Below the pieces are notes generated by a model. The model was not told the DNA's origin and searched no databases. It was given only the letters and a program-made list of their open reading frames with translations. Source: Thermoplasmatales archaeon (GTDB taxonomy: Archaea; Thermoplasmatota; E2; DHVEG-1). From it: DNA of 64,000 bases. Below are positions 1,124 through 54,016 of the stretch, piece by piece. A program made the translations under genes and the position numbers. The stretch lies in assembly GCA_030672305.1 (NCBI GenBank), contig DAOVGR010000050.1, positions 32,302 to 96,301 on the forward strand, in the 5' to 3' direction. The first letter of the stretch is position 1. Each line of letters starts with the position of its first letter.

Positions 1124-1759
1124 ATGAGGATAGATAATAATTCTGAAAAGATTTGTTCGATTTCTAAATATTCATTTAAGACCAAATTCAATATATCAAG
1201 GTTTAATTATTTCTGGAAAGCAATTGATTTTATAGCCTGTAAAATAAAGAGATTTGCTATATTATATGAAAATACCTTGTCCAAAGAATATGAAAAAGAA
1301 GGCGAACTGTTTAATATTTCTGAATCAAAAAATATTTTACACATTGGATGTGGTTCATATCCAGTTACAGCAATCAACCTTGCTAAATACAACGGTGGTA
1401 AGGTTGTCGCAATTGACATTGACCCAAGAGCAATAAAACTAGCCACCAAGGTAATTAATAATAAAAAATTGCAGGATAAAATATCTATTAATAAAGGAGA
1501 TGGAAGAAGTTATCCTATAAAAAAATTTGATGCAATTATCATATCAAGCTGTTCAATTCCAAAAATTGATATTTTAAATCATATTTTTAAAACAGCAAAC
1601 ATTAATAGTAAAATTATAGTTAGAGAAATATATGGAGCTAGGAAAGCAGTGGAGGACTGTATAAATCTCCATAAAAATATCGAGATTAAAAAAAGAATTG
1701 GAAATCATCCATTTCCAACATCTAGATGGGAATCGTTTTATTTAATAAAAAATAGTTAA
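1124..1759 (+). CDS. Small Rossmann-fold SAM-dependent methyltransferase-like protein; paralog of 4618-5250
   Basis: 211 aa. Gly-rich nucleotide-binding motif HIGCGSYPVTAINLA followed by an acidic strand VVAIDIDPRAIKLA, which is the methyltransferase motif I/II layout. Shares NISRF, IGCG and GDGxxYPI blocks with ORF 4618-5250. Confidence 0.55.
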   Translation: MRIDNNSEKICSISKYSFKTKFNISRFNYFWKAIDFIACKIKRFAILYENTLSKEYEKEGELFNISESKNILHIGCGSYPVTAINLAKYNGGKVVAIDIDPRAIKLATKVINNKKLQDKISINKGDGRSYPIKKFDAIIISSCSIPKIDILNHIFKTANINSKIIVREIYGARKAVEDCINLHKNIEIKKRIGNHPFPTSRWESFYLIKNS

Positions 1760-2763: not shown

Positions 2764-2923
2764 TGAACATGGGGTATCTTATTATCTTTATTTATTGTTG
2801 TGGAAAAATGAAAATTCTTTATTTGCATCTTATAATTAAATCAAGCTTACCAGATACTTGGTTTTTTTTATTAACATCACAATGGAATATCTACTTTTTT
2901 AGGGGAAATTATTAATTGAATAA

Positions 2924-3889
2924 TTGTTACACCTTTCATATTTGATGGAAAAAAATAATCTTAAAAAAGTGGTAAAATTACTCCCTATTATTGGTGTTGC
3001 AATATTCATTTATATTATAAATGACATTGGAGTTGAAAAAATTGCAGACGCTTTTTTTTCAATCCCTATCCAATTTTTTATTCTTGCACTTCTAATTGTT
3101 TTTCTAAGAATATTTGTTTATACTTACAAGTGGAGTTATATCTGTAATAAAATGAAAATAAACATTAAATATTTTGATTTAGTAAAAATCTATTTGATTG
3201 GAGTATTTTATGGGAACCTTACACCTGGTGCACTTGGTTTACATTTAAGAATTTTTTACATGAGAAAAAAATCTAAAGCATCAATTGGAAAATGTCTCGC
3301 AAGCTCACTTATAGATATCGAATTAGCATTAATAACAGGTATTTTTATAGGATTAATTGGCACCATTTATCTCATTAATTTCTATCCTGGACTGTTACCG
3401 TTACTAATACTACTTCTTCTTATCCATGGTACTCTGCTAATTATTTTTATGAAAAAAAGTGGTGGAAGTAAATTTTTTAAGATTTTCATAAGACCTTTAA
3501 TACCTAATAAATATAGAGAAGGAATAGATCAATCAGTTGAATTATTTTATGAGGATATGCCCAGATTTAGAGAAATGCTAATTCCTATTTTATTTGATTT
3601 TATTACATGGGTAATAATTGGAACCCAAGTGTATATCATTGCACAAGCATTCTCTGTAGATATTCCTTATTTAATATTTTTGATGTTGCATACATTATCA
3701 GTTGTTGCATATGGTTTATTACCAATTTCAATAGGAGGATTAGGAGTTAGAGAAGGTATATTTGTGTTTTTATTATTACCATTTGGGGTGGCGGCAGAAG
3801 TTGCTTTTGTTATTTCATTATGTGGCTATATTGTAAAATTGATAATTCCTGCGTTATTTGGGATGTTTTTTTCATTTAAAGAGAAATAA
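2924..3889 (+). CDS. Polytopic membrane protein, UPF0104 / flippase-like family (paralog)
   Basis: 321 aa. Block YKWSYICNKMKINIKYFDLVKIYLIGVFYGNLTPGALG aligns with the same block in 1756-2763 and 6817-8397. Multiple TM helices. Confidence 0.6.
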   Translation: MLHLSYLMEKNNLKKVVKLLPIIGVAIFIYIINDIGVEKIADAFFSIPIQFFILALLIVFLRIFVYTYKWSYICNKMKINIKYFDLVKIYLIGVFYGNLTPGALGLHLRIFYMRKKSKASIGKCLASSLIDIELALITGIFIGLIGTIYLINFYPGLLPLLILLLLIHGTLLIIFMKKSGGSKFFKIFIRPLIPNKYREGIDQSVELFYEDMPRFREMLIPILFDFITWVIIGTQVYIIAQAFSVDIPYLIFLMLHTLSVVAYGLLPISIGGLGVREGIFVFLLLPFGVAAEVAFVISLCGYIVKLIIPALFGMFFSFKEK

Positions 3890-3923
3890 AGAGTTATTTT
3901 AAGAGAAAAATCTAGGTGATAAT

Positions 3924-4643
3924 GTGAAAGATGCTGATTTTATTAAATCTAAAAATGAAACAGATTCACATTATGAGTTAGTAAAAAAGTATTTTAGGAA
4001 AAGTGCTGAAGATAAGAAAAGATTTTACAGTTTTAAAAGTAAAGAGGAAATAGAAAAAGAGATAAAAAAACGAAGTATGTGGAAGATATACACATCAATA
4101 TTAGATGAAATTTTACAAAAAGATGCGGAAATCACAAGTGTTATTGATATTGCATGTGGAATGGGGAATTTTACCATGGAGCTTGCTAAACGTAATAATT
4201 ATAAAAGAATAGTAGGAGTTGATTTTCTAAAAGAAACCTTTAATATTGCTCGTAAAACAGAAAATATTTTTAGAAATATTTCCTTTCTGGAGGGAAATTT
4301 ATTAAATCTACCATTTACTGATAGGAGTTTTGATTTCACAATATGCTTAAACACTTTACATCACATATATAAGAATGATTTTTACAAAGCAGTCAATGAG
4401 CTAACAAGAATAACTAAACACTATCTTATGTTAGAAATAAGGAATAAAAATTACATTTTGATGCCTTGGATAAATAAAACTGTTTTACAAAAAGTATATA
4501 GAGATTTACCAATTTATTGTAGCTCAGTTTCAGATTTAAATGATTTAATAGAAAAAAATGGATTTAAACTTAAAATTATTAGACGAAATAGTTCATTAAC
4601 TTGGACAAGTTGGCGTCTTGTACTTGTTTATGAAAGAAATTAA
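3924..4643 (+). CDS. Class I SAM-dependent methyltransferase
   Basis: 239 aa. Motif I VIDIACGMGNFTMELA, motif II RIVGVDF, post-I acidic residue and motif IV FDFTICLNTLHH. Confidence 0.7.
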   Translation: MKDADFIKSKNETDSHYELVKKYFRKSAEDKKRFYSFKSKEEIEKEIKKRSMWKIYTSILDEILQKDAEITSVIDIACGMGNFTMELAKRNNYKRIVGVDFLKETFNIARKTENIFRNISFLEGNLLNLPFTDRSFDFTICLNTLHHIYKNDFYKAVNELTRITKHYLMLEIRNKNYILMPWINKTVLQKVYRDLPIYCSSVSDLNDLIEKNGFKLKIIRRNSSLTWTSWRLVLVYERN

Positions 4644-5250
4644 CAATGGAGGCTTCTTCTTGGAAGTAAATAAAAATAAAAATATTTCAAGATTCTTAAT
4701 TAACAGTCGAAGAATCCTATCATGCTATTATTATAATTTTTTAGAATTACTTGCTGTTAAAACTAAATTATTTCAAAAATTATTAATGGAATGGAGAAGA
4801 CCAGTTTTTCTTAATGAAATAAAAATGGCCAATATTAAAAAAAATGATAAGGTGCTACTTATTGGCTGTGGTATATTTCCATCTGAAACAATGCTAATTG
4901 CAGAGCAAACAGGAGTCGACGTAGTAGGTATTGATAACTCTCCTCAAGCTGTAAAAATAGCAAGAAAATATGTAAAGAAAAAAGGACTTTCAAAAAATAT
5001 AAAAATTGAATATGGGGATGGAAAAGATTACCCAATCAATGATTTTGATGTAATTTTTATAGCGATTAATGTTTGGCCAATTGATTTTGTGTTAAAACAT
5101 ATTTTAAAAAATATGAAATTAGATGGAAGAGTTATGTGTAAAAGTTTAAAAAACGATATTATAAATGTTATTGAAAAAGAAAAATTTGATATTGTTTCAA
5201 AATTAGAAAATCCACAAACACAATCGTTTTTATTAGTAAAGAAAAAGTAA
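4618..5250 (+). CDS. Small Rossmann-fold methyltransferase-like protein; paralog of 1124-1759
   Basis: 210 aa. Motifs VLLIGCGIFPSETMLIA, VVGIDNSPQAVKIA and YGDGKDYPI mirror those of ORF 1124-1759. The 5-prime end overlaps the preceding gene by 26 nt, so the true start may be an internal Met. Confidence 0.55.
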   Translation: MYLFMKEINNGGFFLEVNKNKNISRFLINSRRILSCYYYNFLELLAVKTKLFQKLLMEWRRPVFLNEIKMANIKKNDKVLLIGCGIFPSETMLIAEQTGVDVVGIDNSPQAVKIARKYVKKKGLSKNIKIEYGDGKDYPINDFDVIFIAINVWPIDFVLKHILKNMKLDGRVMCKSLKNDIINVIEKEKFDIVSKLENPQTQSFLLVKKK

Positions 5251-5258
5251 TTTATTTT

Positions 5259-6713
5259 CTAAAGCAAATGGATTAATTGGTTAATTCTTGCTTTCATTTT
5301 GTATAAATCTCTATTCTTGAATATTTTCAGCATCTGTGTAGTTATATATCTTGGTCTAAGATAAAATCTTTTCATAGCCTCTCTATAAAATTCATCGAGC
5401 TCGTCCCTTGTGAAATTTCCAAGACCCTTTCGTAAATCTGCGACAATTGTGTAACCATCTCTTACATTGATTTTTCCATTTTTAACTGCCTCATCCCATA
5501 TGTCTGAACCATATTTATATGTTAAAATTGTAAACAATGCAACATCAAGAGGGAGGGAACAAGCAAACTTAATTGTTTTTTCGATATGTTCTTTTGTCTC
5601 AATTGGAGCTCCTAATATAAAGGTCCCAACAGTGAAAAAATCCATTTCACTACTAAGATTGATTGCTTTTCTAATTTGATCGGTAGTCGCATTCTTATTG
5701 TAAAAATCTAAAACATCCTGATTTGCAGATTCCAATCCATAATATAGATGTTTTACACCTGCATTTTTCATCTTAGAGTAAAGCTTCCTATTTGCAGTAT
5801 CAACCCTTGCACCCTGTACATATATCTCAATATCAGTTCCAATTTTTATCAACTTATCAAGTATTTCATTAGCCCGTTGTTCATCTGCAAGAAAAGTATC
5901 ATCAACTATCATAACAGAATCATAAGATTCATTAATTTTTTTTATCTCATTTACAACATTTTCAACAGAGCGTTGTCTAAAGATCTTAAAACCTAATGTG
6001 TTTCGTGTACAGAATCGACAATTAAAGGGACATCCCCTACCTGTTATCATAGAAGTGAATCTTGGTTTAAAATTTGATTTACTTGTTTTTCCATACTCAT
6101 ATTTTTCAACAAGATGACGAGCAGGAAAAGGAATTGAATCAAGATTTTCAATTATTGTTGCTGGTTTTCCCTTTTTGATTACGTCATTTTTTCTATAATA
6201 GATACCATGTATTTCAGATAGTTTCTTTCTCCCTTCTATTGATTCTACAATTTCCTTAATTACTTGTTCGCCATCACCTTCTACACTTATGTCAGCAGAG
6301 GGTATTTCATTTAGAGATTTTTTTGGTTGTATACTACAATGGGGACCACCAATTATAATTGGAATATCAGATTCAATTTCCTTAATATATTTCGCTACCT
6401 TTGCTGATTCTTTATAAGCATATGTATATTTGCCTCCATGCATTGTTTCTTCATAAGATGATGAAAATACACTTATTCCAACAGCATCTGTTGTTGACAG
6501 CTCTTTATTAAGAGATTTTAACGGATAACTTTCAGCTAGAAAATCTATTAATTCAACAGTATGACCTGCATTTTCTAAAACACTTCCAAGATACAAAAGA
6601 CCTAGAGGGGGGTGATATGATGATATTTTTTGTGGTTTATCTATTTTTGATGTAAAAATATAGTCCGGCGGAATTTGTAATAACAAGAATTTCATTTGAT
6701 AAATCCAAATCAT
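5259..6713 (-). CDS. B12-binding-domain radical SAM enzyme (class B radical SAM family)
   Basis: 484 aa. N-terminal cobalamin-binding-like domain PLGLLYLGSVLENAGHTVELID then a radical SAM core with CxxxCxxC (GRGCPFNCRFC). Confidence 0.8.
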   Translation of the reverse strand: MIWIYQMKFLLLQIPPDYIFTSKIDKPQKISSYHPPLGLLYLGSVLENAGHTVELIDFLAESYPLKSLNKELSTTDAVGISVFSSSYEETMHGGKYTYAYKESAKVAKYIKEIESDIPIIIGGPHCSIQPKKSLNEIPSADISVEGDGEQVIKEIVESIEGRKKLSEIHGIYYRKNDVIKKGKPATIIENLDSIPFPARHLVEKYEYGKTSKSNFKPRFTSMITGRGCPFNCRFCTRNTLGFKIFRQRSVENVVNEIKKINESYDSVMIVDDTFLADEQRANEILDKLIKIGTDIEIYVQGARVDTANRKLYSKMKNAGVKHLYYGLESANQDVLDFYNKNATTDQIRKAINLSSEMDFFTVGTFILGAPIETKEHIEKTIKFACSLPLDVALFTILTYKYGSDIWDEAVKNGKINVRDGYTIVADLRKGLGNFTRDELDEFYREAMKRFYLRPRYITTQMLKIFKNRDLYKMKARINQLIHLL

Positions 6714-6816
6714 ATTAGTATTGATATATTATTTGAATAAATTTTTGTTAAAATTATTAATCTTATAACAATTAAACAATTTAGATAAATACCAAATGTA
6801 ATTTAACTTTGCACAT

Positions 6817-8397
6817 ATGGACTATAAAAAATTGTTACCAATCATTGGAATAATTATTCTATTATACATAATAGTAACTCTAGATTTACAGGAAATATAT
6901 ACAGTTTTTTCAAATATTCATCCAATATATTCTCTCATCTCATTTTTTGCTATTCTTCCCGTTGTCTTAATGACAAATATTCAATGGCAAATACTGCTAA
7001 GAAAACAACGGATTAAAGTTAGCTTTCTTTATTCATTAAAAAACATATTCATTGGTTATTTTTATGGATTTATTTCACCAGGTGGGATAGGTGCTTATAC
7101 CAGAGCTTTATATCTTGAACATGAAAGTAAAGCTCCTCTTGGAAAATGTCTATCCAATATAATTATTTTCAACACAATTGATTATCTATCACTACTTTTA
7201 CTTGGAGCAATTGGTGCAATTTTTCTTAGTAGTATATATCCCCATCTTTTTGCAGTCATCATTGCTGTTATTTTTGTTATTGTTACTCTGCTTCTATTTT
7301 TTCTTAAAAAAGAAAAATCTAAAAACATATTTTTAAAAATAATTCAAACAAGAATATTTAGTTCTGTTAAGGACAGACTAACAGAATCTCTGGATTCTTT
7401 TTATGAAGATTTACCTCGTTTTAAAGACGTACTAATACCATTTGGAATTTCAATTATAGGTTGGATTGTAAGATTTACAGAACTTTACTTTATTTCAAAA
7501 CTTTTCTTAATTGATGTATCTTTTATTTATTTTATACTAATAATTGCTGTAGCAAATGTAATTGCCTCAATTCCAATAACAATATATGGGCTTGGAACAA
7601 GAGAAGCCTCGTTAATTACTATGTTTTTATTTTTTAATGTAATTCCTGAGAAAGTATTAGGTCTTTCATTGTTTTGGTTTACAATAATTTGGTTTTCCCC
7701 TAGTATATTAGGAGCTATTATAACTTATATTGAAACAAAGAAGCTAAGTATGTCATTTTTGAATGAAAAAACTGTAGAAAAGTTTTCAAATTACATGAAA
7801 AGATATCCTGAGCTTTACAGAAATCTTACTGATGTTGTTAAGAAAAATATCCCAAATAAGATTACTAAGCCAATCATTGTGGATTTAGGTGTCGGACCCG
7901 GACTACTCTCACAAGAAATAATTAAGCAGACACCCAATGCAAAAATTATAGGTATTGATCCATCAGGTAAAATGCTTAATTTGGCAAATAAAAATGTAAA
8001 AAAAGATGTGTTTCAAGCAATGCTAGGAGCCTCTGAAAACATTCCACTTGAAAAAAACACTGTGGATATTATAGTAAGCAGATTCAGCCTTACATACTGG
8101 AAGAAACCAAGAGATAGTTTTAGAGAAATCAATAGAATTTTAAAACCGGGTGGTAAGCTGATATTAGAAGCATTGAATAATAAATTTTCAAAATGGAAAT
8201 TATTTGCTATAAAGACACATATGATTTTTAATTCAGCAGGATTAGATGTTATAAGATATCATTCTGAGGCATTTAAAACAGCATATAATATCCAGCAGGT
8301 TGAACATTTGTTAAAAAATTCTGGATTCAAAATAATTTATAAAGAAGCTAAGAAAAATGACTGGAAATATATTCTAGTTTCAGGAAAGGGGAAATAA
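6817..8397 (+). CDS. Fusion protein: N-terminal UPF0104/flippase-like membrane domain plus C-terminal class I SAM methyltransferase
   Basis: 526 aa. Residues 1-300 are polytopic with the conserved WQILLRKQRIKVSFLYSLKNIFIGYFYGFISPGGIG block. C-terminal residues carry methyltransferase motif I VDLGVGPGLLSQEI, IIGIDPS and ILKPGGKLILE. Confidence 0.65.
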   Translation: MDYKKLLPIIGIIILLYIIVTLDLQEIYTVFSNIHPIYSLISFFAILPVVLMTNIQWQILLRKQRIKVSFLYSLKNIFIGYFYGFISPGGIGAYTRALYLEHESKAPLGKCLSNIIIFNTIDYLSLLLLGAIGAIFLSSIYPHLFAVIIAVIFVIVTLLLFFLKKEKSKNIFLKIIQTRIFSSVKDRLTESLDSFYEDLPRFKDVLIPFGISIIGWIVRFTELYFISKLFLIDVSFIYFILIIAVANVIASIPITIYGLGTREASLITMFLFFNVIPEKVLGLSLFWFTIIWFSPSILGAIITYIETKKLSMSFLNEKTVEKFSNYMKRYPELYRNLTDVVKKNIPNKITKPIIVDLGVGPGLLSQEIIKQTPNAKIIGIDPSGKMLNLANKNVKKDVFQAMLGASENIPLEKNTVDIIVSRFSLTYWKKPRDSFREINRILKPGGKLILEALNNKFSKWKLFAIKTHMIFNSAGLDVIRYHSEAFKTAYNIQQVEHLLKNSGFKIIYKEAKKNDWKYILVSGKGK

Positions 8398-39018: not shown

Positions 39019-40557
39019 TTATGTCAAGGGTACATCCTTTCTTAAATCATCTCTCATTTTTTTTCCAGTTTGTTTCTCCCATTCTTTAATTGTAATTGAA
39101 TGTTTATTTCGGATTTTATCACCTATTCCAAGACCATTGTAAGAACAAAATGGAACAATACCTTCAAGAGTTGTATAATGAATTACACATCGCTCTAAAC
39201 GATCAACATTAAGGTTAAAAGCATCCTGGAACCACATTGATCCAACAAAGAGACTCTTGTAATGAAATCCTCGAAGTGAATCATAGCTTCCACCTATTGC
39301 TGCATCTTTCAAGAGTTTTTTTAGGTTAAAACCACTAGGTGCCTTATTATAATCCACAAATTTGTCAACTTTTGTTAAAAAAGCAGAAGCAACTCTAAGC
39401 TTTTTTAATGGCCCTCTAATTTTACTTTCTTTATCTACAAACTCAAGTAAACCTTCAACATCAATGAATCGTGTAATAGGCATAGGTTTTCCATTATCCA
39501 AAAATATATATGTTGCACCACCACAACCAGGATGAGCAGTAAACTCCACTTGGGTTTCTCCTTTCAATAGTTCGATTAGTTTTGAAATTGGATACACAAA
39601 TGGAACAGGATAAAAATCATCTTTAGATATTTGCCCATTAAATTCCTTTTCTATTGCATCCATCATTTTAACATAGTCAACTCGCTGCATTTCTCGCTTT
39701 TCATCTTTTATTTTTGTTATTCTACCGCAAAATGATACAGGTTGAAAATTTACACCTCTGATTATATCTATGTTATCGAGTGCAAATTTTACTATTTTTC
39801 CTGTCTCATGAAGATTTTTTCCTCCGATCAAAACAGGAACGAGTACTATTTTTAAGTTTACCTTTCTTAAATTATCAATTGCTTTTTTATTAAGATCTAT
39901 CCATGGATTGGTTTTTTTAGTCACACCATCAAAGCTCATATAGACGGTGTTTACCTTTGCTTCTTTTAGCTGCCGGCAATAATCAACACTATCAGCAAGT
40001 TTCAAACTATTAGTATTTACTTGAACATGAGAAAAACCGACTTCCTTAGCCATTTTTACAATATCTAAAAGATCCTTACGAATGGTTGGCTCCCCACCGG
40101 TTATCTGAATTGCTTTAGATCCCATTGGTCGTTCATTTCTTGCTTGAATCAGTAATTCTCTGATTTGTTCTAATGTTGGTTCATATACTCTACCAGATGC
40201 CCCAGCATTCATAAAACAATAGCTACATCTTAGATCACAGCGGTTTGTTACCAAAAGATTTGTAAGAACGCTTTGAGATTTATGCTCATCATATAATGCA
40301 GGTTCATCAAATATTTTAGTTTTAACATCTGGAGCTAAACTTCCTGTAACGATATATTTCATCCACTTTTTATAGAGATTTACATCACTAAAATAGATAT
40401 CTTTGAAAGATCCATGCTTCTTGCATTCTTTCGTTATATATACCTTTCCATCATCCTCAACAATAGCTGCATCTATTTTTTCGATTTTTCCCTCTTGATA
40501 ACAGGCTGGACAAACAGATGTAATTTTTTCTAATTCTCTCATATCCCTTCCATCCAT
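39019..40557 (-). CDS. Radical SAM enzyme with N-terminal zinc-ribbon; possibly tetraether lipid synthase (Tes / GDGT-MAS)-like
   Basis: 512 aa. CPACYQEG...CKKHG ribbon, radical SAM CxxxCxxC (NRCDLRCSYCF) and extra C-terminal Cys pair (CVIHYTTLEGIVPFCSYNG). Size and layout resemble the roughly 500-aa archaeal Tes/GDGT-MAS family. I cannot confirm the specific assignment without alignment. Confidence 0.7.
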   Translation of the reverse strand: MDGRDMRELEKITSVCPACYQEGKIEKIDAAIVEDDGKVYITKECKKHGSFKDIYFSDVNLYKKWMKYIVTGSLAPDVKTKIFDEPALYDEHKSQSVLTNLLVTNRCDLRCSYCFMNAGASGRVYEPTLEQIRELLIQARNERPMGSKAIQITGGEPTIRKDLLDIVKMAKEVGFSHVQVNTNSLKLADSVDYCRQLKEAKVNTVYMSFDGVTKKTNPWIDLNKKAIDNLRKVNLKIVLVPVLIGGKNLHETGKIVKFALDNIDIIRGVNFQPVSFCGRITKIKDEKREMQRVDYVKMMDAIEKEFNGQISKDDFYPVPFVYPISKLIELLKGETQVEFTAHPGCGGATYIFLDNGKPMPITRFIDVEGLLEFVDKESKIRGPLKKLRVASAFLTKVDKFVDYNKAPSGFNLKKLLKDAAIGGSYDSLRGFHYKSLFVGSMWFQDAFNLNVDRLERCVIHYTTLEGIVPFCSYNGLGIGDKIRNKHSITIKEWEKQTGKKMRDDLRKDVPLT

Positions 40558-40651: not shown

Positions 40652-40885
40652 GTGTGTTTAGCTATACCTGGTAAAATTGTTGAAATAAATAAAGACAAAG
40701 AACATGCAGTAGTAGATTATGGGGATGGAACTAAACGTAAAGCTAATGTTACTCTTGTTAATGTAAAAATTGGTGATTATGTATTGGTTCATGCAGGTTT
40801 TGCAATAGAAGTTTTAAATGAAAAAGAAGCAAAAGAAACACTTGATCTTTTTAGAGAAATGCTTTCTGCAGAGGAGGACGTCTAG
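40652..40885 (+). CDS. hypC: [NiFe]-hydrogenase maturation chaperone HypC
   Basis: 77 aa. Begins with the invariant MCLAIP. Confidence 0.9.
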   Translation: MCLAIPGKIVEINKDKEHAVVDYGDGTKRKANVTLVNVKIGDYVLVHAGFAIEVLNEKEAKETLDLFREMLSAEEDV

Positions 40886-41967
40886 TGTTTTCTTTACGTG
40901 ATAAGAAACTTGCAGATGAAATTGTTTCGAAAATTAAGAAATTGGAGGTTAACTTAAAATTTATGCATGTATGTGGTACACATCAAGATACTCTTGTAAA
41001 AAATGGTTTAGATGTTCTACTAAAAGATTGTGGAATTGAGATTGGACAAGGTCCAGGTTGTCCGGTCTGTGTTACAACTCCTAAAGAAATCGAAGAAATG
41101 CTACTTCTTGCTAGAAAAGGTAAGACTGTTACAACTTTTGGAGATATGATAAATGTACCTGGTGAAACCCAATCTTTACGTAGCATTCGATCTGAAGGTT
41201 GTGATGTTAGAACTGTGTATGGTATTGAGGATGCCTTAGAAATTGCTAAAAATAACAAGGAAAAAGAAGTTGTTTTTATGGCTGTTGGTTTTGAAACAAC
41301 AGCACCTACTACTGCAACAGTAATACTTAATGAAAATCCACCAGATAATTTTTCAATTCTTTCTTGCCATCGTACAATACCTGAGGCATTAAAAGCAATC
41401 ATTGAAATGGGTGAAATAAAGATAGATGGACTTATTGAACCAGGTCATGTTTCCACAATTATTGGATCAAAACCTTATGAGTTCCTCTCAAAAGATTATA
41501 ATGTTCCTCAAGTAATAGCTGGATTTGAGCCAATTGATGTTTTAATGGGTGCATGGATGCTTGTTCAGCAAATAGAAAAGGATAAGGCTTTTGTTCAGAA
41601 TGAATACAAAAGAGTTGTCCATGAAGAAGGAAATGTTAAAGCTCAGCAGGCAATAAAAAAAGTCTTTGATTCAATAGATTTACAATGGCGAGGCTTTCCA
41701 ATTATTCCAAAATCAGGTCTTGTTTTAAATGACAAATTTGAGAGATATGATGCCCGTAAGAAATTTGAAGATGATCTAGAAGAATTAAAAGATAAGGAGT
41801 TTTTTGAGCATAAAGGTTGTCGATGTGGAGAATTGCTACGAGGATTAGCATCACCAAAAGACTGTCCTTTATTTGGTCAGGCATGTACACCGGAAACCCC
41901 AGTTGGCCCTTGTATGGTAAGTATTGAAGGCAGTTGTAATATTGAATACCGATATTCAGAAAAATAA
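40885..41967 (+). CDS. hypD: [NiFe]-hydrogenase maturation factor HypD
   Basis: 360 aa. CGTHQD, GPGCPVCV and C-terminal CxxC...CPVC-type Fe-S motifs. Confidence 0.9.
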   Translation: MFSLRDKKLADEIVSKIKKLEVNLKFMHVCGTHQDTLVKNGLDVLLKDCGIEIGQGPGCPVCVTTPKEIEEMLLLARKGKTVTTFGDMINVPGETQSLRSIRSEGCDVRTVYGIEDALEIAKNNKEKEVVFMAVGFETTAPTTATVILNENPPDNFSILSCHRTIPEALKAIIEMGEIKIDGLIEPGHVSTIIGSKPYEFLSKDYNVPQVIAGFEPIDVLMGAWMLVQQIEKDKAFVQNEYKRVVHEEGNVKAQQAIKKVFDSIDLQWRGFPIIPKSGLVLNDKFERYDARKKFEDDLEELKDKEFFEHKGCRCGELLRGLASPKDCPLFGQACTPETPVGPCMVSIEGSCNIEYRYSEK

Positions 41968-42874: not shown

Positions 42875-44248
42875 TTATTTATTCCGCCGGTGATGCGAAT
42901 GGCGAGCAGACAACCGACGTTTATGTTTCTCAAGGATGAGTTGTATCAACTCTTCACTGGTTACATGCCTTTTTGGCATGATGACTTCAAAAATCTCTTT
43001 GACGTCCTGCACAGTTAAAAACTCAACTTTCTTCCCCAAATCTATGGATAGCACCATAAGATATAGCATTGCAAGAATAGTCATGGTCATATGATGATGC
43101 CAACCAGTCCAATTACGTACCTGATAATCTGCCAGTCCTGCGATGCCTTTTCCATCTTCAAATGTTCTTTCAATCCAATACCTGCTCCCAGACATTTGAC
43201 CTAAACGATTAATACATGTATCAACAGGAGCATTTGATAACTGATATTTAATTTCTTTACTCTTTGGATCCTTTCGGATGATCAACCAGCATTCATCTCC
43301 GGGGAGGCTATCATTTTCACTTGGAAATACACGCGGGCAGGCCATATCTGCCCATAACTCCCTTCGCTCGGTATCTCGGATAAACACATGATGCCACTCC
43401 TCGCCATCCAGTTGATCTTTAAGATCTCTCACCTTAATTGAATCTGCTCCTTCAATCACTTTCTCACGAGTAGGATTACGACCACGAACACCTTTTTTAC
43501 GTGACGGCACTCCTGTTATCGGACGCTCCAACCATACACCAAGGTTACAAGGAATATCAGCAATATACACCAAACCCTGTGCATCTATCTTGTTTCTCAA
43601 CCATGAGTCACGACCATAGAAACAATCTATCCCCACCCAGCCGAAAGGCACCTTGTTCTTCTTTTGTGCATGAAGAATCATCTCCCATGCAAGCTCTGTT
43701 TTTTTCTTAAAACGAACATACCATGGCACCCCGCATTTCCTCCGACGTACCTTATCCGGTATCCATTCCTTTGGAAGAAATAATCGTTCATCAATCAACG
43801 TCCTATAAGAGTCCTTGGTATATCCAAGGAAGATACCTACCTGACAATTCGCTATCTTTCCTAGTCGACCGCAATACTGTGGAGCCGCACCCACTGAATC
43901 AGTTCCTTGTTTAGGAAAACAACATTCATCAATATGTATTGAACCTTTATTTTTATCTCCAATAGCATCAATGACGTCACGTTGAATATGATTAATTACA
44001 GGTCGATGATTCCATGGTGAATTAGATACAAAATGTTGCAGGGATTGATTGTTACAATCAGGAACATCTTTTGCATATGAACACATGTTACCTCTACCTT
44101 TTCCAAGCAGCTTTCCCTGAATGTACTGGAATGATTGCTTTGCCATATTTCGGGTTTTTGTTAAAAAATACAAGGCATATCCATCATGGAAACATTTAAG
44201 CTTATCATGTGATCCATCTAAATCCTTTACGGATAATGAAAACTTCAT
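42875..44248 (-). CDS. IS701-family (IS4 superfamily) DDE transposase
   Basis: 457 aa. C-terminal signature SGSRYWIERTFEDGKGIAGLADYQVRNWTGWHHHMTMTILAMLYL. G+C visibly higher than flanking DNA. Confidence 0.85.
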   Translation of the reverse strand: MKFSLSVKDLDGSHDKLKCFHDGYALYFLTKTRNMAKQSFQYIQGKLLGKGRGNMCSYAKDVPDCNNQSLQHFVSNSPWNHRPVINHIQRDVIDAIGDKNKGSIHIDECCFPKQGTDSVGAAPQYCGRLGKIANCQVGIFLGYTKDSYRTLIDERLFLPKEWIPDKVRRRKCGVPWYVRFKKKTELAWEMILHAQKKNKVPFGWVGIDCFYGRDSWLRNKIDAQGLVYIADIPCNLGVWLERPITGVPSRKKGVRGRNPTREKVIEGADSIKVRDLKDQLDGEEWHHVFIRDTERRELWADMACPRVFPSENDSLPGDECWLIIRKDPKSKEIKYQLSNAPVDTCINRLGQMSGSRYWIERTFEDGKGIAGLADYQVRNWTGWHHHMTMTILAMLYLMVLSIDLGKKVEFLTVQDVKEIFEVIMPKRHVTSEELIQLILEKHKRRLSARHSHHRRNK

Positions 44249-44358: not shown

Positions 44359-44607
44359 TTATTTTGGCTTGTATTTATCCATTTTTTTATTTGCAATTTT
44401 GCTTGTTATTATATAATAAGTATATACTAAAACAAGCTCAATTGCAAAAATAATTAAAAACCAAACAAAAGTAGAACCAATCCTTAATAGATTATTTGTA
44501 TTTGTTATATCTAAACCAAAAGTTATAACAATAGAACCTAAGAATGGTATAAACATACCAACAATTACTATTATTAGTATCTGTATCAAATCCCTGTTTT
44601 TACCCAT
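44359..44607 (-). CDS. Small membrane protein (2 TM), unknown function
   Basis: 82 aa and hydrophobic. Lies between the IS and hypF. Coding status uncertain. Confidence 0.35.
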   Translation of the reverse strand: MGKNRDLIQILIIVIVGMFIPFLGSIVITFGLDITNTNNLLRIGSTFVWFLIIFAIELVLVYTYYIITSKIANKKMDKYKPK

Positions 44608-44653: not shown

Positions 44654-46846
44654 TTAAGAATTCAGTTTATTCCCAATAATAGCATTTTGACCAATAGAAA
44701 TACCACCATCACCATTAGGAATCTGATTATGAACGGTTAACTTCAATCCTGCTTTTTCAACTTGTTTTTCTATCATCTCTACAATAGGAATATTGTAAGA
44801 TACCCCGCCTGTTAATCCAACGTTCTTAATACCTAAATTATCTGTATAATCAATAGCTATATTTGTAAGATCATCAAGAATAGTTTTAACAAACGAAAAA
44901 ACAAAATCTGCTTTTTCTTTTTCAGTTAGAGGTTTATTTATCATCTCATCAAGTTGTCTAAATAGATCAATAGTACCAACAACACCATTTTTTACTTCAC
45001 TGTTAAATGAATATTTAGATTCCCCAACAGAAAGATACTTCTCAAGCTTCATAGCAGGTTCACCATCATAAGTTCTCTTTGTACATATATTTAGATAACA
45101 GGAAAGAGTATCAAGTACACGTCCTAGACTGCATGATTGTGGTGATTTATCCATTAATTTACTAAGGATAGATGCTTCATCTCCTGTAAAGAATTTTTCA
45201 ATATCGAATTTTTTAAAAACGGCAAAAACAAGTCTTCGTGGATCACGGGTTGCCTGGTCACCACCAAGAAGAGGAATATATCCAAGATGACCAACACGAT
45301 CAAATTCTTCAAAATTTGAAATAAGAATTTCCCCACCCCAATAAGTTCCGTCGCTGCCATATCCAAGACCATCTAATGTTAAAACAACGCTTTCCTTAAT
45401 ATTTCTATCAACTAAAAGTGAAACAGCATGAGCCCAATGATGTTGAACTTCAAATAAAGGAACTGAAAATTCCTCAGAAAACTTCTTAGCTATCTTTCTT
45501 GAATCGTAACCTGGATGAAGATCCTGAACAATAGCATCAATCTTAGGCTTCTTCATTATAAGTTTTATAAGATAATTCAGGCTATCTTCTAAAAATTCAA
45601 GGGTTGAATAGTATTTTGAATTGCCAATATACTGAGTTGCATAAACACTTTTATTATGAGAAATTGCACCTGTAATGTTTTCACCAGCACCAACACTTAA
45701 AATTCGATTATTATATGAAACAGCAATAGGTTCTGGAACATAACCTCGTGATCTCCTAATAAAAAAGGTATTATCTTTCCACAACCTAACAACAGAATCA
45801 TCGACTCTATTTGGTATACTTCTATTATGTAAAAGGTAAATATCTGCATCTATAGAAAATGCTTCCTCATCTGTAGTAATCATTGCCTCTCCAGGAATAT
45901 TTGAAGAGGTCATTACAAGAGCATCTGATTTTAAATATGAAAAGAGAAGATGGTGCAAACCAGTATAGGGTAAAAATAATCCAATTGTGTTTAATCCAGG
46001 AGATACTTCTTCACAATTGATCTTATTTAAAAGAACAATAGGTCTGCTCTTAGAAAGTAATTTTTTTTTCTCATCTTCATTTATATTAGCGTATTTTTTT
46101 GCAGTTTCAAGGTCTCTAACCATCAAAGCAAAAGCTTTTTGTGGACGGCCATACCACCCTCTAAACCGACTAATTTGACTAAGATTACAGCACAGATGCA
46201 TTCCACCCCATGATTTTATAACGCCAATTTTACCAGCATCTATCTGATTTGCAAAACGCTTTATTGCATGTTTTTCTCCTAGATCTTTTTTCTTTTTGTC
46301 ATATAAATTATATTTCGGACCACATTTTGGGCAAGAAATCGTCTGAGCATGATAACGGCGATTTAAGGGATTTTTATATTCTTGTTGACAGTCCCTGCAT
46401 AACTTAAATACGTCCATGCTAGTTCTTTCTCTATCATATGGAACATCTTTTACTAGACTATAGCGGGCACCACAAACAGTACAATTAGTAAAAGGAAAAT
46501 GATAACGCCTATCTTTTTCATCCAAAAGCTCTTTCAAACAATCATTACAGATTCCAACATCAATAGGAATTAATGATTGTCTTTCGCCTTTTTCACTATG
46601 AAGAATTTTAAAATCGTCAAATGTTCTATTATCATTTTTTTCAATAATTTCTGTTATCTTTGCAATTGATGGTAGATGATCTTTTACTTGTTTGATAAAT
46701 TCATCTTTTTTTTTATCTATAACTACTTCTACCTCTGAGCCCTTGTTTAAAACATAACCATTTAGATTTAATTTTTTTGCAATGCGATAAATAGTTGGTC
46801 TAAAACCTACTCCTTGTACTACACCTTTAAAGATAAGTTTCATCAA
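44654..46846 (-). CDS. hypF: [NiFe]-hydrogenase maturation carbamoyltransferase HypF
   Basis: 730 aa. N-terminal acylphosphatase domain (VQGVGFRPTIYRIAKKL), two CxxC-x18-CxxC zinc fingers, then YrdC-like and Kae1-like domains. Confidence 0.9.
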   Translation of the reverse strand: MMKLIFKGVVQGVGFRPTIYRIAKKLNLNGYVLNKGSEVEVVIDKKKDEFIKQVKDHLPSIAKITEIIEKNDNRTFDDFKILHSEKGERQSLIPIDVGICNDCLKELLDEKDRRYHFPFTNCTVCGARYSLVKDVPYDRERTSMDVFKLCRDCQQEYKNPLNRRYHAQTISCPKCGPKYNLYDKKKKDLGEKHAIKRFANQIDAGKIGVIKSWGGMHLCCNLSQISRFRGWYGRPQKAFALMVRDLETAKKYANINEDEKKKLLSKSRPIVLLNKINCEEVSPGLNTIGLFLPYTGLHHLLFSYLKSDALVMTSSNIPGEAMITTDEEAFSIDADIYLLHNRSIPNRVDDSVVRLWKDNTFFIRRSRGYVPEPIAVSYNNRILSVGAGENITGAISHNKSVYATQYIGNSKYYSTLEFLEDSLNYLIKLIMKKPKIDAIVQDLHPGYDSRKIAKKFSEEFSVPLFEVQHHWAHAVSLLVDRNIKESVVLTLDGLGYGSDGTYWGGEILISNFEEFDRVGHLGYIPLLGGDQATRDPRRLVFAVFKKFDIEKFFTGDEASILSKLMDKSPQSCSLGRVLDTLSCYLNICTKRTYDGEPAMKLEKYLSVGESKYSFNSEVKNGVVGTIDLFRQLDEMINKPLTEKEKADFVFSFVKTILDDLTNIAIDYTDNLGIKNVGLTGGVSYNIPIVEMIEKQVEKAGLKLTVHNQIPNGDGGISIGQNAIIGNKLNS

Positions 46847-46853
46847 ATCTTAC

Positions 46854-47255
46854 CTATTCAACAATTAAATCCTTGGAATAAGGATCTGCATCAGCAAGTA
46901 AAAACTCATCACCCATGGTCAAACAATTTGTTGGACAAACATCATTACATTGACTGCAAAAACAACATCTAGCAAGAAATATCTTAATTTTTTTCTCCTT
47001 GGGTTTAAATTCAATAGCTTCACAAGGGCAGTACTTTATGCACAGTTGACATCCAGTACATTTTTCTTTGTCATATTTTATTTTTCCACGGAAGCCTTTA
47101 GGTGTTTGAATTGGTGGAACAATCTCTGCCTTACCTTCACCAACATCTGCTAAAAATTGAGTTGTATTTGAAGGTGCATATTTAGCAGGAAACTTATTTG
47201 TCCATGGTTTTTTAAACATTTGAACAAAAACTGATGGTAACATAGAAAATCTCAT
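46854..47255 (-). CDS. Group-4 [NiFe]-hydrogenase 2x[4Fe-4S] ferredoxin subunit (NuoI/EchF/MbhN-like)
   Basis: 133 aa. Two CxxCxxCxxxCP motifs (CTGCQLCIKYCP, CCFCSQCNDVCP). Confidence 0.8.
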   Translation of the reverse strand: MRFSMLPSVFVQMFKKPWTNKFPAKYAPSNTTQFLADVGEGKAEIVPPIQTPKGFRGKIKYDKEKCTGCQLCIKYCPCEAIEFKPKEKKIKIFLARCCFCSQCNDVCPTNCLTMGDEFLLADADPYSKDLIVE

Positions 47256-48487
47256 TTCATAAACCTCCTTGTCTTTTCAACACTCATTTTATGCAACTGT
47301 TCTTTAGTGAGTTCATATTTACTATTATTATTTACTATAGCAACTCTATTTGTACATGACATACAGGGATCTGTTGATGCTGCAACAATAGGAATATCAG
47401 CAATTTGTTCACCTTTTAACATTGGAATCCAGGGGAGTATATTGTTATATGTTGGTGCACGGACCTTCCAGGTGTAAGGATTTTCAGTTTGTCCATTAAA
47501 TTTAACATAATGGATAACCTCGCCACGTGGTGCCTCATGTCTACCAACTCCTTCTCCATTTACTTTTTTCAGCTGATTCATAAGTTTTGGAATTTTTGGT
47601 TCAGAAACAATTTCACCGGCAGGCATTTCATCGATACACTGTTCAACAAGATCAATTGATTGTTTAACTTCCAAAAGTCTTTGAATAATTCTATCATATA
47701 CATCTCCATTTATATTACCTGTTAAGACATCTGGAGTGATATAATCAATATCTAGATCACCATATGCAAAATAAGAGGTATCAACTCTAACATCCTTTTT
47801 TACACCAGATGCTCTGGTAGTTGGTCCTACTGCACAGAGTTTTAACGCATCTTTCTTTGTTAAAATCCCAGCACCCTGACTTCGCATTTTAATTGTCTTA
47901 TCATCAAGAAATATATGACGTAATTTCTCAAAATTATCTTTAAAGAATTGCAGATCTCTTTTAATTCTAGGAAGCATGTCTTTTGTGATATCCCTTCTAA
48001 TACCTCCTATCGTCATTATACCCTTTGTTATACGATTACCTGTTAAATATTCTGTAAGATCAAGTGCTTTTTCTCGAATCTGCCAGGTAAAATACAAAAC
48101 TGTATCAAAACCAATTTCATGTGCGGCAACACCAGCCCATAGAATATGAGAACAAATTCTCTCAAGCTCTCCTTGAATAACTCTAAGGTACTCTGCACGT
48201 TCTGGTACTTGAATATCAGCTGCAGCTTCGACAGCAAGGGAAAATGCGGCAGGATGACAATAAGAACAAATTCCACAAATTCTTTCAGCCAAATATAATA
48301 CCTGAATCGGATTTCTTTTTCTGGAAGCCCATTCAACACCTCTGTGAATATGACCGAGTTTTACATTAACATCTATAATCCTCTCTCCATCGATCTCAAA
48401 TTCAAAATATACAGGTTCTTTTAATGCAGGGTGAATAGGTCCAACTGGAATATGATATGATGTTTTTGTGGTAGCTGTTTGTTTCAT
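47252..48487 (-). CDS. Group-4 [NiFe]-hydrogenase large (catalytic) subunit (NuoD-like)
   Basis: 411 aa. N-terminal Ni-binding motif RICGICSYCH and C-terminal DPCMSCTNR, then about 27 aa of putative cleavable extension. IPVGPIHP block typical of group-4/NuoD-like enzymes. Confidence 0.9.
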   Translation of the reverse strand: MKQTATTKTSYHIPVGPIHPALKEPVYFEFEIDGERIIDVNVKLGHIHRGVEWASRKRNPIQVLYLAERICGICSYCHPAAFSLAVEAAADIQVPERAEYLRVIQGELERICSHILWAGVAAHEIGFDTVLYFTWQIREKALDLTEYLTGNRITKGIMTIGGIRRDITKDMLPRIKRDLQFFKDNFEKLRHIFLDDKTIKMRSQGAGILTKKDALKLCAVGPTTRASGVKKDVRVDTSYFAYGDLDIDYITPDVLTGNINGDVYDRIIQRLLEVKQSIDLVEQCIDEMPAGEIVSEPKIPKLMNQLKKVNGEGVGRHEAPRGEVIHYVKFNGQTENPYTWKVRAPTYNNILPWIPMLKGEQIADIPIVAASTDPCMSCTNRVAIVNNNSKYELTKEQLHKMSVEKTRRFMK

Positions 48488-49020
48488 TTTTTCACCTCAT
48501 GTAAATTCTTATATAATTTTTCAACGCCAGTTTCATCTCTACGCCATGGATAAACACCTTGAGGAAAATCATCAGGTAAAAAGCATCTTTTATCATCAGG
48601 AATTCCTTTAATCTTAACTCCAAGCATTTCCATTTTTTCACGTTCTGTAATAAGAGCTCCTGGGATTAAGTCACATATTGTTTCAATTTCGGGATTTGAT
48701 TTTGGTAACTCAACTGAAATATTAAAATTAATTTCTTCCATGCGAGTACCATAATTAACTGTAAAATGATAAATCAATTCTATGTTTTTACCAAGATCAT
48801 TACCTGATGTTACAGCAAGATGTGGAAATTGAAGATCACAAAGATGTTTAATTGCATCCTTAAAAACACTCTTATCAATCTTCATCCAAATATTAGCTGT
48901 CTGATTTTTCTTTATACCCGCAGGACGTTTCTTGATCTTGGCATCCTTGATTTTTGTTTTAAATTTATCTTTAAATGACTTAACAATTGCTTCAGGTGTT
49001 AACTTTTTATCTTTGGTCAT
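48484..49020 (-). CDS. Group-4 hydrogenase NuoC-like subunit (EchD/MbhK-like)
   Basis: 178 aa. Complex-I 30 kDa fold block ITEREKMEMLGVKIKG. Confidence 0.75.
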   Translation of the reverse strand: MTKDKKLTPEAIVKSFKDKFKTKIKDAKIKKRPAGIKKNQTANIWMKIDKSVFKDAIKHLCDLQFPHLAVTSGNDLGKNIELIYHFTVNYGTRMEEINFNISVELPKSNPEIETICDLIPGALITEREKMEMLGVKIKGIPDDKRCFLPDDFPQGVYPWRRDETGVEKLYKNLHEVKK

Positions 49021-49454
49021 TTCTTAGCCTCCAATGTTTCTAATTTGACCCATGCCTTTGCAACTGCATTAATTATTGCCTCAGGTCGCGGCGGACAACC
49101 AATTACATGAACATCAACAGGTAAAATTTTATTAACTGGACCAACAAGATTATAAGACTCATAAAAGACATCACCAGTATTACCACAATTACCTACGCAT
49201 ATAACTGCCTTCGGATCGGGCATCTGTGCATATACACGTTTAACCTTGTCCTCCATCTGTCTGGTCACTGGTCCAGTAACCAATAACACATCTGCATGAC
49301 GTGGTGTGCCAACAAGTCTTATACCAAAACGCTCAACATCATAGCGAGGACATAAAGCTGCTATAATTTCGATGTCACAACCATTACATGAACCAGAGTT
49401 GCAATGGTATACCCATAAAGCCCTTTTAAAAGACTTAGTAAGACCTTTTGCCAT
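49017..49454 (-). CDS. Group-4 [NiFe]-hydrogenase small subunit (NuoB-like, proximal [4Fe-4S])
   Basis: 145 aa. CNSGSCNGCDIE, VGNCGNTG and GCPP cysteine ligands. Confidence 0.85.
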   Translation of the reverse strand: MAKGLTKSFKRALWVYHCNSGSCNGCDIEIIAALCPRYDVERFGIRLVGTPRHADVLLVTGPVTRQMEDKVKRVYAQMPDPKAVICVGNCGNTGDVFYESYNLVGPVNKILPVDVHVIGCPPRPEAIINAVAKAWVKLETLEAKK

Positions 49455-49536
49455 AAAATAATGCCTCCATGAACCTAATAAGTTCTGTTTTTGGTAATCT
49501 TATATACTATTTAAAAATTTGTGGAAATAATAAATA

Positions 49537-50592
49537 TCAACATATTCTTGGAACAGGGTCTCCAATTGGCTTGTGTAGATTTCGTTTTCCTCCAACTGTT
49601 GTTTTAAGAACTACTCCTTTAATTTTATCTGTTGTTTCGCCAATAATTGCTGCATTCTTACCTAAGGGATGTTTCTTAATTGATGCAAGAACATCCTCTG
49701 CTCTTTCTTTAACAACAGCAAGAACGACCTTACCTTCATTACCAATTTCTAACGGATCGATACCAAGCATATCGCAGGCAGATCTAACACCTCGAGGTAT
49801 CGGAATGTTATCTTCCGCCAAGATTATTCCAATATTAGATTTATCGCAAAACTCGTTTACTGTATTTGAAAGACCGCCACGTGTCGGATCCTTTGCAGAA
49901 ACGATACCTCCAACCGATAATGCTTTTTCCATTAATCCATTAATCGCTGCAATATCAGATTTTATCTTAGTTTCAAAACCATAACCCTCTCTAAAAGACA
50001 TTAAGGCAATACCATGTTCACCAATATTTCCAGAAAGAATTATTATGTCGCCATTTTTTAGATTTGAATCAAGAAGCCATCTTTTATCAAAACTACGATA
50101 TCTCTTAACTTCCTTTATGTTATTATCAAGAATATTTGTTCTTTTTCCAATTCCACTTGTATTAATCATGAATTCTTGTATAGCACCTTTTTCAACAACC
50201 TTAGTGTCACCAGTAACAATTGGAACATTTGCATCACTTGAAACCTTGCTCATGCTATTGACAATCTTTTCAAATATTTCAATAGAGAGTCCTTCCTCAA
50301 CTATAAATCCAGCAGAAAGAGCAATAGGTTTAGCACCCATAACTGCTATATCATTAACAGTTCCTGCGACAGCAAGAGAGCCAAGATCTCCACCTGGGAA
50401 AATAATTGGTTGTACTGTATGAGAATCAGTAGTAAAAACAATATCATCAATTACTGCTGAATCATCAAGCATAGACAATGGTATCTCTGCAGATATTGAT
50501 GTTTTTCCAAAATATTTTAAAATCTTCTGTTTGATGAGTTTATCCATCAATTGTCCGCCAGCACCATCTGCAAGTTTTATTTTATCTACCAT
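49537..50592 (-). CDS. hypE: [NiFe]-hydrogenase maturation protein HypE
   Basis: 351 aa. PurM-like fold with the invariant C-terminal PRIC. Confidence 0.9.
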   Translation of the reverse strand: MVDKIKLADGAGGQLMDKLIKQKILKYFGKTSISAEIPLSMLDDSAVIDDIVFTTDSHTVQPIIFPGGDLGSLAVAGTVNDIAVMGAKPIALSAGFIVEEGLSIEIFEKIVNSMSKVSSDANVPIVTGDTKVVEKGAIQEFMINTSGIGKRTNILDNNIKEVKRYRSFDKRWLLDSNLKNGDIIILSGNIGEHGIALMSFREGYGFETKIKSDIAAINGLMEKALSVGGIVSAKDPTRGGLSNTVNEFCDKSNIGIILAEDNIPIPRGVRSACDMLGIDPLEIGNEGKVVLAVVKERAEDVLASIKKHPLGKNAAIIGETTDKIKGVVLKTTVGGKRNLHKPIGDPVPRIC

Positions 50593-53557: not shown

Positions 53558-54016
53558 TTGAACTTTTCTATGGAATACATTGTAATGTGCATAGGTAATA
53601 GAGAAGGTGGGGATGATGCAGTTGGACCATATATTGCAGATAGGTTGAAATTTGAAAAACTTGATAATATTGGAGTAATAGATTGCGGGACAGTCCCTGA
53701 AAATTATACATCTATTGTAAAGCGTAAAAAACCTAAGATTCTTGTTATTATTGACGCAGTTGAAATGGAGCTAAAACCAGGAGAAATAAGAATTGTTCCT
53801 AAAGAAAAAATTGGAGTTATGACAATTTCTACCCATGGGATTCCTATTTCAGTTCTAATAGGATACTTAGAACAATATGTTGAAAATATTATTTTTATTG
53901 GTATTCAACCAAAAGAAATGTCAGGTGAAATAATTACCATTGTTAAAGAAAGTGGAGATAAGTTAGTTGAGATACTAAAGAACAATAATTTAGAGAAAAT
54001 CAAAACTCTCCAATGA
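53558..54016 (+). CDS. hycI: Hydrogenase maturation endopeptidase (HycI/HybD family)
   Basis: 152 aa. GNREGGDDAVGPYIADRL, IIDAVE and HGIP metal-binding blocks. Confidence 0.8.
   Translation: MNFSMEYIVMCIGNREGGDDAVGPYIADRLKFEKLDNIGVIDCGTVPENYTSIVKRKKPKILVIIDAVEMELKPGEIRIVPKEKIGVMTISTHGIPISVLIGYLEQYVENIIFIGIQPKEMSGEIITIVKESGDKLVEILKNNNLEKIKTLQ

Follow-up and report, generated by a model that had tools for sequence, protein, structure and literature searches.

What kind of enzyme is encoded by a group-4 [NiFe]-hydrogenase module that has no membrane-subunit gene beside it? The question is posed by a 64,000-nucleotide stretch of contig DAOVGR010000050.1, from a Thermoplasmatales archaeon (referred to here as the window), in which four hydrogenase genes are nested between the maturation genes hypE and hypF. 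A first-pass annotation of this DNA had read the module as a minimal group-4 hydrogenase devoid of any membrane subunit, and hence as soluble; as an alternative, it had named membrane partners encoded elsewhere. The analysis presented here supports the alternative. Judged by homology and residue conservation, the module is MbhJKLN, the peripheral (cytoplasmic) arm of a Thermoprofundales [NiFe]-hydrogenase that is of the Mbh type (group 4d), depends on ferredoxin, and evolves H2, and the membrane partners are encoded elsewhere in that lineage. That the identity as MbhJKLN and the split of the mbh operon both hold is highly probable, and the fuller explanation that we favor overall, a split Mbh in which JKLN docks on a distant membrane arm, is likely to be correct. 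A split of this kind is already known from work published in 2022; the module is not a new minimal soluble hydrogenase.

The module and its relation to Mbh

Six close-packed genes form the block hypE-mbhJKLN-hypF, all on the minus strand at positions 44654 to 50592 of the window (Table 1). The J/K, K/L, and L/N junctions are overlaps of 4 bases each, hypF begins 7 bases 3' of mbhN, and 82 bases lie between hypE and mbhJ. Given the 4-base overlaps and the 7-base mbhN-hypF gap, JKLN and the flanking hypE and hypF are probably co-transcribed as one transcription unit. With Pfam E values of 1e-21 to 1e-63 and a match of 2e-112 for MbhL, chance matches are ruled out, and the Pfam and NCBIfam matches bear out the first-pass gene calls as well as their order (small subunit, NuoC-like subunit, large subunit, and 2x[4Fe-4S] protein) between hypE and hypF. 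The span originally given to the module, 46854 to 50592, takes in hypE; the four-gene module proper covers 46854 to 49454.

Table 1. Hydrogenase-related genes and other features of the window, with the matches behind each assignment (aa, amino acids; ORF, open reading frame; TM, transmembrane)
Feature	Position	Strand	Product	Match or context
hypE	49537-50592	-		TIGR02124, 368.6 bits (cutoff, 251.6); directly 5' of mbhJ; position kept in loci L001, L003, and L089
mbhJ, NuoB-like small subunit	49017-49454	-	145 aa	PF01058, E = 2e-31; 6cfw_J, E = 4.6e-55
mbhK, NuoC-like subunit	48484-49020	-	178 aa	PF00329, E = 2.8e-21; 6cfw_K, E = 1.1e-23
mbhL, NuoD-like [NiFe] large subunit	47252-48487	-	411 aa	PF00346 and PF00374; 6cfw_L, E = 2.2e-112
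mbhN, 2x[4Fe-4S] subunit	46854-47255	-	133 aa	NF006221, 141.7 bits, above cutoff; 6cfw_N, E = 3.2e-26, including the N-terminal segment
hypF	44654-46846	-		TIGR00143, 762 bits; position kept in L001, L003, and L089
HycI-type maturation endopeptidase	53558-54016	+		TIGR00142, 125.6 bits (cutoff, 119.1); near the module also in L001 and L089
hypC	40652-40885	+		PF01455, E = 8.5e-27; syntenic in L003 and L089
hypD	40885-41967	+		PF01924, E = 6e-140; syntenic in L003 and L089
Conserved ORF, about 2 TM helices by hydropathy	44359-44607	-	82 aa	Directly 3' of hypF; no Pfam or NCBIfam match
IS701-family transposase	42875-44248	-		NF033540, 308.8 bits; between a DNA-alkylation repair gene and the 82-aa ORF
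ORF, about 4 predicted TM helices	50648-50947	+	99 aa	No family match; divergent, upstream of hypE; 67% identity in L003
Radical SAM protein	39019-40557	-		HMPTM-type N-terminal zinc ribbon; adjoins hypC/hypD; 83% identity and same place in L003
LPG_synthase_TM gene cluster	1756-8397			Partly syntenic with L001

For all four proteins, the top match in the Protein Data Bank (PDB) was the corresponding chain (J, K, L, or N) of Pyrococcus furiosus Mbh (PDB entry 6CFW; 14 subunits, mbhA-N), which is also the best structural homologue of MbhM and MbhH from a relative described below. For MbhL, the E value of the 6CFW match compares with 1.6e-70 for HycE and 1.3e-42 for subunit L of MBS (6u8y_L), and the second-best structural match of MbhJ was HycG (4e-41). 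In all four subunits, the 6CFW chains led those of formate hydrogenlyase (FHL) and MBS by 14 to 42 orders of magnitude. Ranked by structural match, Mbh thus came first and FHL second, with complex I and MBS chains well behind, in a comparison of subfamilies whose reference set was the solved structures and held no Ech or Coo reference.

The functional residues agree with this ranking. As the first-pass annotation had noted, MbhL carries the motifs RICGICSYCH and DPCMSCTNR; these contain the NiFe ligands as C71xxC74 and C375xxC378, respectively. Together with E24, the four cysteines align with C68/C71, C374/C377, and E21 of P. furiosus MbhL, so the ligand and catalytic-Glu motifs of group 4d are present (for the roles of the ligand cysteines and of the catalytic Glu in the beta1-beta2 loop, see PMC9585477 and PMC8679088). 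The annotated C-terminal extension of MbhL is present as well, although it amounts to 30 residues after R381 rather than about 27. In MbhJ, the cysteines of one [4Fe-4S] cluster (C23, C26, C90, and C120) align with those of 6cfw_J. MbhN retains both CxxCxxCxxxCP motifs, which together with the MbhJ cluster give the three FeS clusters of the P. furiosus enzyme, and a conserved N-terminal helix, MRFSMLPSVFVQMFKKPWTNKFP; it is presumed to be the entry point for electrons from ferredoxin.

The lineage is indicated by the nearest homologues of MbhL, which are 82 to 93% identical to it. Those with names come from the Thermoplasmata metagenome-assembled genomes (MAGs) SG8-52-3 (93%), SG8-52-4, M9B1D, and M8B2D, all of which belong to the Thermoprofundales (MBG-D) (PMC6461988, Table 1), and Thermoprofundales MbhL has been placed in group 4d by Zhang et al. 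(2022; PMC9585477). JGI names the closest homologues "membrane-bound hydrogenase subunit alpha." The window has a G+C content of about 31% and contains archaeal housekeeping genes (TFIIB, fibrillarin, and the archaeal editing domain of threonyl-tRNA synthetase), both of which are consistent with this lineage.

Could the module instead be a nonhydrogenase relative (an Ehr-, Mbx/MBS-, or Fpo/complex I-like Q module) or what is left of a decaying Mbh operon? In NCBIfam and Pfam, the matched families bear the names of "NADH dehydrogenase" subunits B, C, D, and I, and some homologues are annotated by NCBI as "NADH dehydrogenase." Both CxxC pairs for NiFe and the catalytic Glu are present, however, and the match to the MBS large subunit is far weaker than that to MbhL. 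Decay is contradicted by intact genes with 4-base overlaps, by the hypE and hypF flanks with hypCD and hycI nearby, and by 82 to 93% conservation across >120 sequence clusters. In all, we consider this explanation very improbable: motifs and homology together effectively refute it, and its Mbx/MBS and pseudogene versions were rejected.

Among the hydrogenases of group 4, two further families come into question. Ech (group 4e, echABCDEF) is also a ferredoxin-dependent group-4 enzyme, and the first-pass annotation had likened the gene order to both echCDEF and mbhJKLN. The echCDEF order is indeed the same, and all four proteins best match MbhJ, MbhK, MbhL, and MbhN. In Ech, the only two membrane subunits are products of the same six-gene operon, and the large subunit has no C-terminal extension to be cleaved off. 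The window has the 30-residue extension, a HycI-type protease, no adjacent membrane genes, and best matches to Mbh; an Ech-type assignment was rejected on these points. Escherichia coli FHL (Hyd-3, group 4a; PDB entry 7Z0S) is the second-best structural homologue and has HycI-type C-terminal processing in common with the module. In FHL, NuoC and NuoD are fused in the 569-residue HycE, and the membrane subunits HycC and HycD are encoded in the same operon, whereas K and L are separate genes in the window. Pfam scans of the window found no HycB, HycC, HycD, or FdhF domain. With K and L unfused and neither HycB nor a formate dehydrogenase partner in the window, an FHL (Hyc/Hyf) assignment was likewise rejected.

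Maturation genes accompany the module. The endopeptidase that the first-pass annotation had placed nearby scores above the TIGR00142 cutoff, and hypC and hypD form a pair on the other side of the block. No hypA or hypB gene (nickel insertion) was detected in the 64-kb window; in L004, a locus with a contiguous mbh operon, hypA lies a few kilobases from the mbh genes.

The membrane half in related genomes

The Pfam scan covered all ORFs of the window of at least 110 aa, plus smaller ORFs with TM helices. No NuoH, NuoL/Mrp, MbhD/E, or MnhB domain was found among these, so the reported absence of NuoH- and NuoL-type genes holds within 64 kb. The multi-TM proteins that do occur are LPG synthase-like proteins, a ZIP transporter, an ABC-2 permease, and the like. 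A contiguous 14-gene mbhA-N operon is not found here: mbhN overlaps mbhL by 4 bases, with no mbhM between them. In P. furiosus, one operon holds all the genes in the order J-K-L-M-N, whereas in the Thermoprofundales split mbhM stays with the membrane genes. Contiguity is a trait of the canonical mbh operon, not of the enzyme.

The block hypE-J-K-L-N-hypF recurs with the same neighbors in three independent assemblies, which answers the search for the four-gene module in related genomes that the first-pass annotation had proposed. These are CP070724.1 (2.32 Mb) and CP070836.1 (1.79 Mb), both complete-looking MAG chromosomes, and the JGI contig Ga0310067_1000038 (167,839 bp). The neighbors common to the relatives are hycI, the hypC/hypD pair, a DNA-alkylation repair gene, a TM1506/thioredoxin reductase-like pair, and NrdD/NrdR.

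The membrane arm was traced through MbhM. The closest representative of MbhL among 50% identity clusters (P0121, 58% identical) sits in the contiguous mbhA-N operon of L004, whose GC fraction is 0.59. A search with the MbhM of this operon returned proteins labeled mostly as DPANN (Aenigmarchaeota and Diapherotrites) or Bipolaricaulota, plus one Thermoplasmata protein. The gene for the latter lies in a ten-gene cluster, mbhA-B-C-D-E-F-G-H-I-M, in which mbhM comes right after mbhI and which lacks J, K, L, and N. A profile of MbhM proteins from such I-M arrangements recovered the MbhM homologue P0438, which shares JGI contig 3300028823 Ga0310067_1000038 with P0108, an MbhL homologue. On this contig, hypE-JKLN-hypF occupies approximately 43.5 to 49.4 kb (JKLN, approximately 44.6 to 47.2 kb; MbhL 82% identical to that of the window), and mbhABCDEFGHI-M occupies approximately 105.7 to 111.3 kb on the opposite strand, about 58 kb from JKLN. 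A metagenome scan with P0438 yielded 80 loci at 73 to 100% identity, with G+C fractions of 0.28 to 0.53. In every locus with enough upstream sequence (78/78), mbhM lies directly 3' of mbhI and the locus contains no J, K, L, or N gene.

Because A-I and M share a contig with JKLN in one relative and because all 78 informative loci have the I-M junction, the membrane partners are encoded elsewhere in the Thermoprofundales lineage. The first-pass reading as a soluble enzyme without any membrane subunit is thus not supported, since relatives encode mbhA-I and mbhM at a distant locus, a finding that the annotation itself had named as refuting it, and its alternative is borne out in those relatives. 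We infer that the source genome of the window also has a membrane arm. The split is the rule in this lineage and unusual compared with other Mbh operons.

The local lack of membrane genes might also be an assembly artifact or a private rearrangement mediated by an insertion sequence (IS), and an IS701-family transposase gene does lie 400 bases beyond hypF. Three independent assemblies that lack the IS nevertheless have the same gene order, the same 4-base L/N overlap, and no mbhM, and the reciprocal I-M junction is present in 78 metagenome loci. These synteny data refute the explanation, which we regard as having next to no chance of being correct.

The arrangement matches one already described. 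Zhang et al. (2022, Mol Biol Evol 39:msac213; PMC9585477) found group 4d MbhL in 71% of 146 Thermoprofundales genomes and reported that subgroup E alone, among GenBank genomes, has the operon divided into two parts, mbhJKLN and mbhABCDEFGHIM. Lineage, the hydrogenase group assigned by those authors, the mbhJKLN block lacking mbhM, and the separate mbhABCDEFGHIM are shared with the present case, and there is no substantive difference; the match was made at the level of the Thermoprofundales rather than of the subgroup. The present analysis thus reproduces the published split independently, and the window is a further instance of it, not a discovery. The details added here are the nesting of the module between hypE and hypF, the presence of both halves about 58 kb apart on one contig, and the nonmonophyly of split loci in an MbhM tree (see below).

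Proposed coupling of the two halves

The mechanism that we propose is modeled on the P. furiosus enzyme (PDB 6CFW; PMC8679088). HypCDEF would assemble the Fe(CN)2CO center, and the HycI-type protease is presumed to remove the 30-residue tail of MbhL after R381. Reduced ferredoxin would pass electrons to MbhN, from which they would run via three [4Fe-4S] clusters (two in MbhN and one in MbhJ) to the NiFe site of MbhL. There, protons supplied via the Glu of the beta1-beta2 loop (E24) would be reduced to H2. The distant membrane half of the relatives consists of an Mrp-type antiporter module and the NuoH-like anchor MbhM, and docking of JKLN on MbhM/MbhI would yield a single complex in which, as in P. 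furiosus, H2 evolution is coupled to the translocation of H+/Na+.

That JKLN docks on MbhM/MbhI in vivo appears reasonably likely, and three observations favor it. First, every locus examined has retained mbhM and mbhI as the last genes of the membrane cluster, although a plain Mrp antiporter is not known to use either. Second, the coupling residues of MbhM are invariant: all 80 MbhM copies are intact, and none departs from the others at Glu150 (the counterpart of Glu141 in P. furiosus), in the EAETE loop, or in the EYSG motif. E. coli HycD, through its PDB alignment to 6cfw_M, served as a residue reference only. Pure Mrp antiporters are not known to contain a NuoH homologue, and MbhM and MbhI have no known role in stand-alone Mrp antiporters; conservation of MbhM therefore argues that it still serves a peripheral arm. 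Third, MbhJ, MbhK, and MbhN of split genomes resemble those of their closest contiguous relatives, and their N termini, including the N-terminal helix of MbhN, show no systematic difference between split and contiguous operons.

Two candidate markers of the split were considered and dropped. The MbhN family of the window has about 20 extra residues (25 to 46) relative to P. furiosus MbhN, but this insert is family-wide, occurring in split and contiguous members alike. MbhH is only about 40% identical to its P. furiosus counterpart in the whole family (loci L004 to L088) and lacks Lys256, and Lys409 is shared with the P. furiosus protein; in a subset of MbhH proteins, His350 and Lys354 are replaced by Asp and by Ile, Leu, or Met, respectively. 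As this variant occurs in both operon types, the proton-channel positions K256, H350, and K354 are uninformative with regard to the split.

Several points weigh against a split Mbh that assembles into one complex. The membrane arm (MbhA-I and MbhM) is absent from the 64-kb window, the stretch of the source genome that was examined, and it was not retrieved from CP070724.1 or CP070836.1, neither of which was reached by the scan, made by exact 8-mers with the Thermoplasmata MbhM. Transcripts of the peripheral arm have been found at much higher levels than membrane-arm transcripts, and independence of the two has been argued (Zhang et al., PMC9585477). Moreover, the case for docking made above is one of conservation throughout.

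The reading of Zhang et al. (2022), who argue that the two halves function independently, takes JKLN to be a free-standing soluble ferredoxin:H+ hydrogenase that vents reductant, with the distant mbhA-I,M as a separate Na+/H+ antiporter; the first-pass annotation in effect amounts to this reading as well. In its favor, the halves are genetically unlinked, JKLN sits inside its own maturation operon, transcription of the peripheral arm is distinct and much higher, mbhA-M alone complements an E. coli strain deficient in Na+/H+ antiporters, and recombinant MbhL makes H2 (PMC9585477). The H2 assay, however, used a maltose-binding protein-MbhL fusion with a PelB signal peptide, produced in E. coli BL21 in the absence of MbhJ, MbhK, and MbhN and supplied with dithionite and methyl viologen. 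An assay of MbhL without J, K, and N is no test of the native JKLN complex. The BL21(DE3) host itself matures [NiFe] enzymes poorly. Antiporter complementation shows only that the membrane arm can move Na+, and unequal transcript levels fit either model and do not exclude assembly. Retention of mbhM beside mbhI in 78/78 informative loci, with invariant coupling residues, and the absence of split-specific change at the N termini of the peripheral subunits also speak against two independent machines. The arguments published for independence are less strong than they seem, and we consider full independence unlikely.

In a milder version, JKLN would spend at least some of its time in vivo as a four-subunit ferredoxin:H+ hydrogenase free in the cytoplasm and uncoupled from ion translocation, with docking on MbhM/MbhI being regulated or dispensable. 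This, too, we consider unlikely. If true, JKLN would be a soluble group-4 [NiFe]-hydrogenase occurring in nature and a present-day counterpart of the ancestral hydrogenase module that has been proposed.

Origin of the split and neighboring genes

The split of what was ancestrally a 14-gene mbhA-N operon is a derived state, as the nearest nonsplit relatives of the window's MbhL are found in contiguous Thermoplasmata operons (L009, 71% identity; L010, 68%) and most other sampled operons (DHVE2/Aciduliprofundum, Thermococci, Atribacterota, Dehalococcoidia, Synergistota, and others) are contiguous as well. Its history was approached with a bootstrapped neighbor-joining tree of MbhM, a distance-based tree of one protein, which included loci L005, L008, L009, L010, L011, L012, L016, and L088. 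In this tree, the Thermoprofundales clade was recovered in 99/100 replicates and monophyly of the six split loci in 0/100. The contiguous L009 and L010 nest among the split loci, and L009 groups with split loci in 65 to 70% of replicates. This topology hints at more than one origin or reversal of the split, or at exchange of operons between lineages. In another Thermoplasmata MAG (L034, 6932 to 10500), mbhA-I,M is followed by divergent N-, L-, and J-like genes on the opposite strand with 35 to 43% identity to those of the window; this is a third arrangement and may be a different complex.

Directly after hypF lies the small TM ORF listed in Table 1, with counterparts of 57 to 66% identity in the same position in L001 (13901 to 14149), L003 (13857 to 14102), and L089 (14210 to 14461). 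Whether it belongs to the hydrogenase system is uncertain. In the slot taken by the IS701-family transposase, relatives have small ORFs, including one for a 55-aa 2x[4Fe-4S] ferredoxin in L001 (14218 to 14385); a ferredoxin gene like the one beside hypF in L001 was sought, and none was found anywhere in the window. Farther away, the LPG_synthase_TM gene cluster comprises three paralogous proteins, one fused to a methyltransferase, interleaved with SAM methyltransferases and a B12-binding radical SAM enzyme, and looks like a membrane-lipid modification cluster. A second TM ORF upstream of hypE and a radical SAM protein next to hypC/hypD are also given in Table 1. Scans of the window for tRNAs and Rfam families gave no matches.

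Mbh serves as a model for how complex I-type machines arose by the joining of a soluble hydrogenase module and an Mrp antiporter. A lineage that encodes, and possibly regulates, the two halves separately puts that modularity to a natural test, and it is also relevant to H2 production in sediments, where this archaeal group is among the most abundant.

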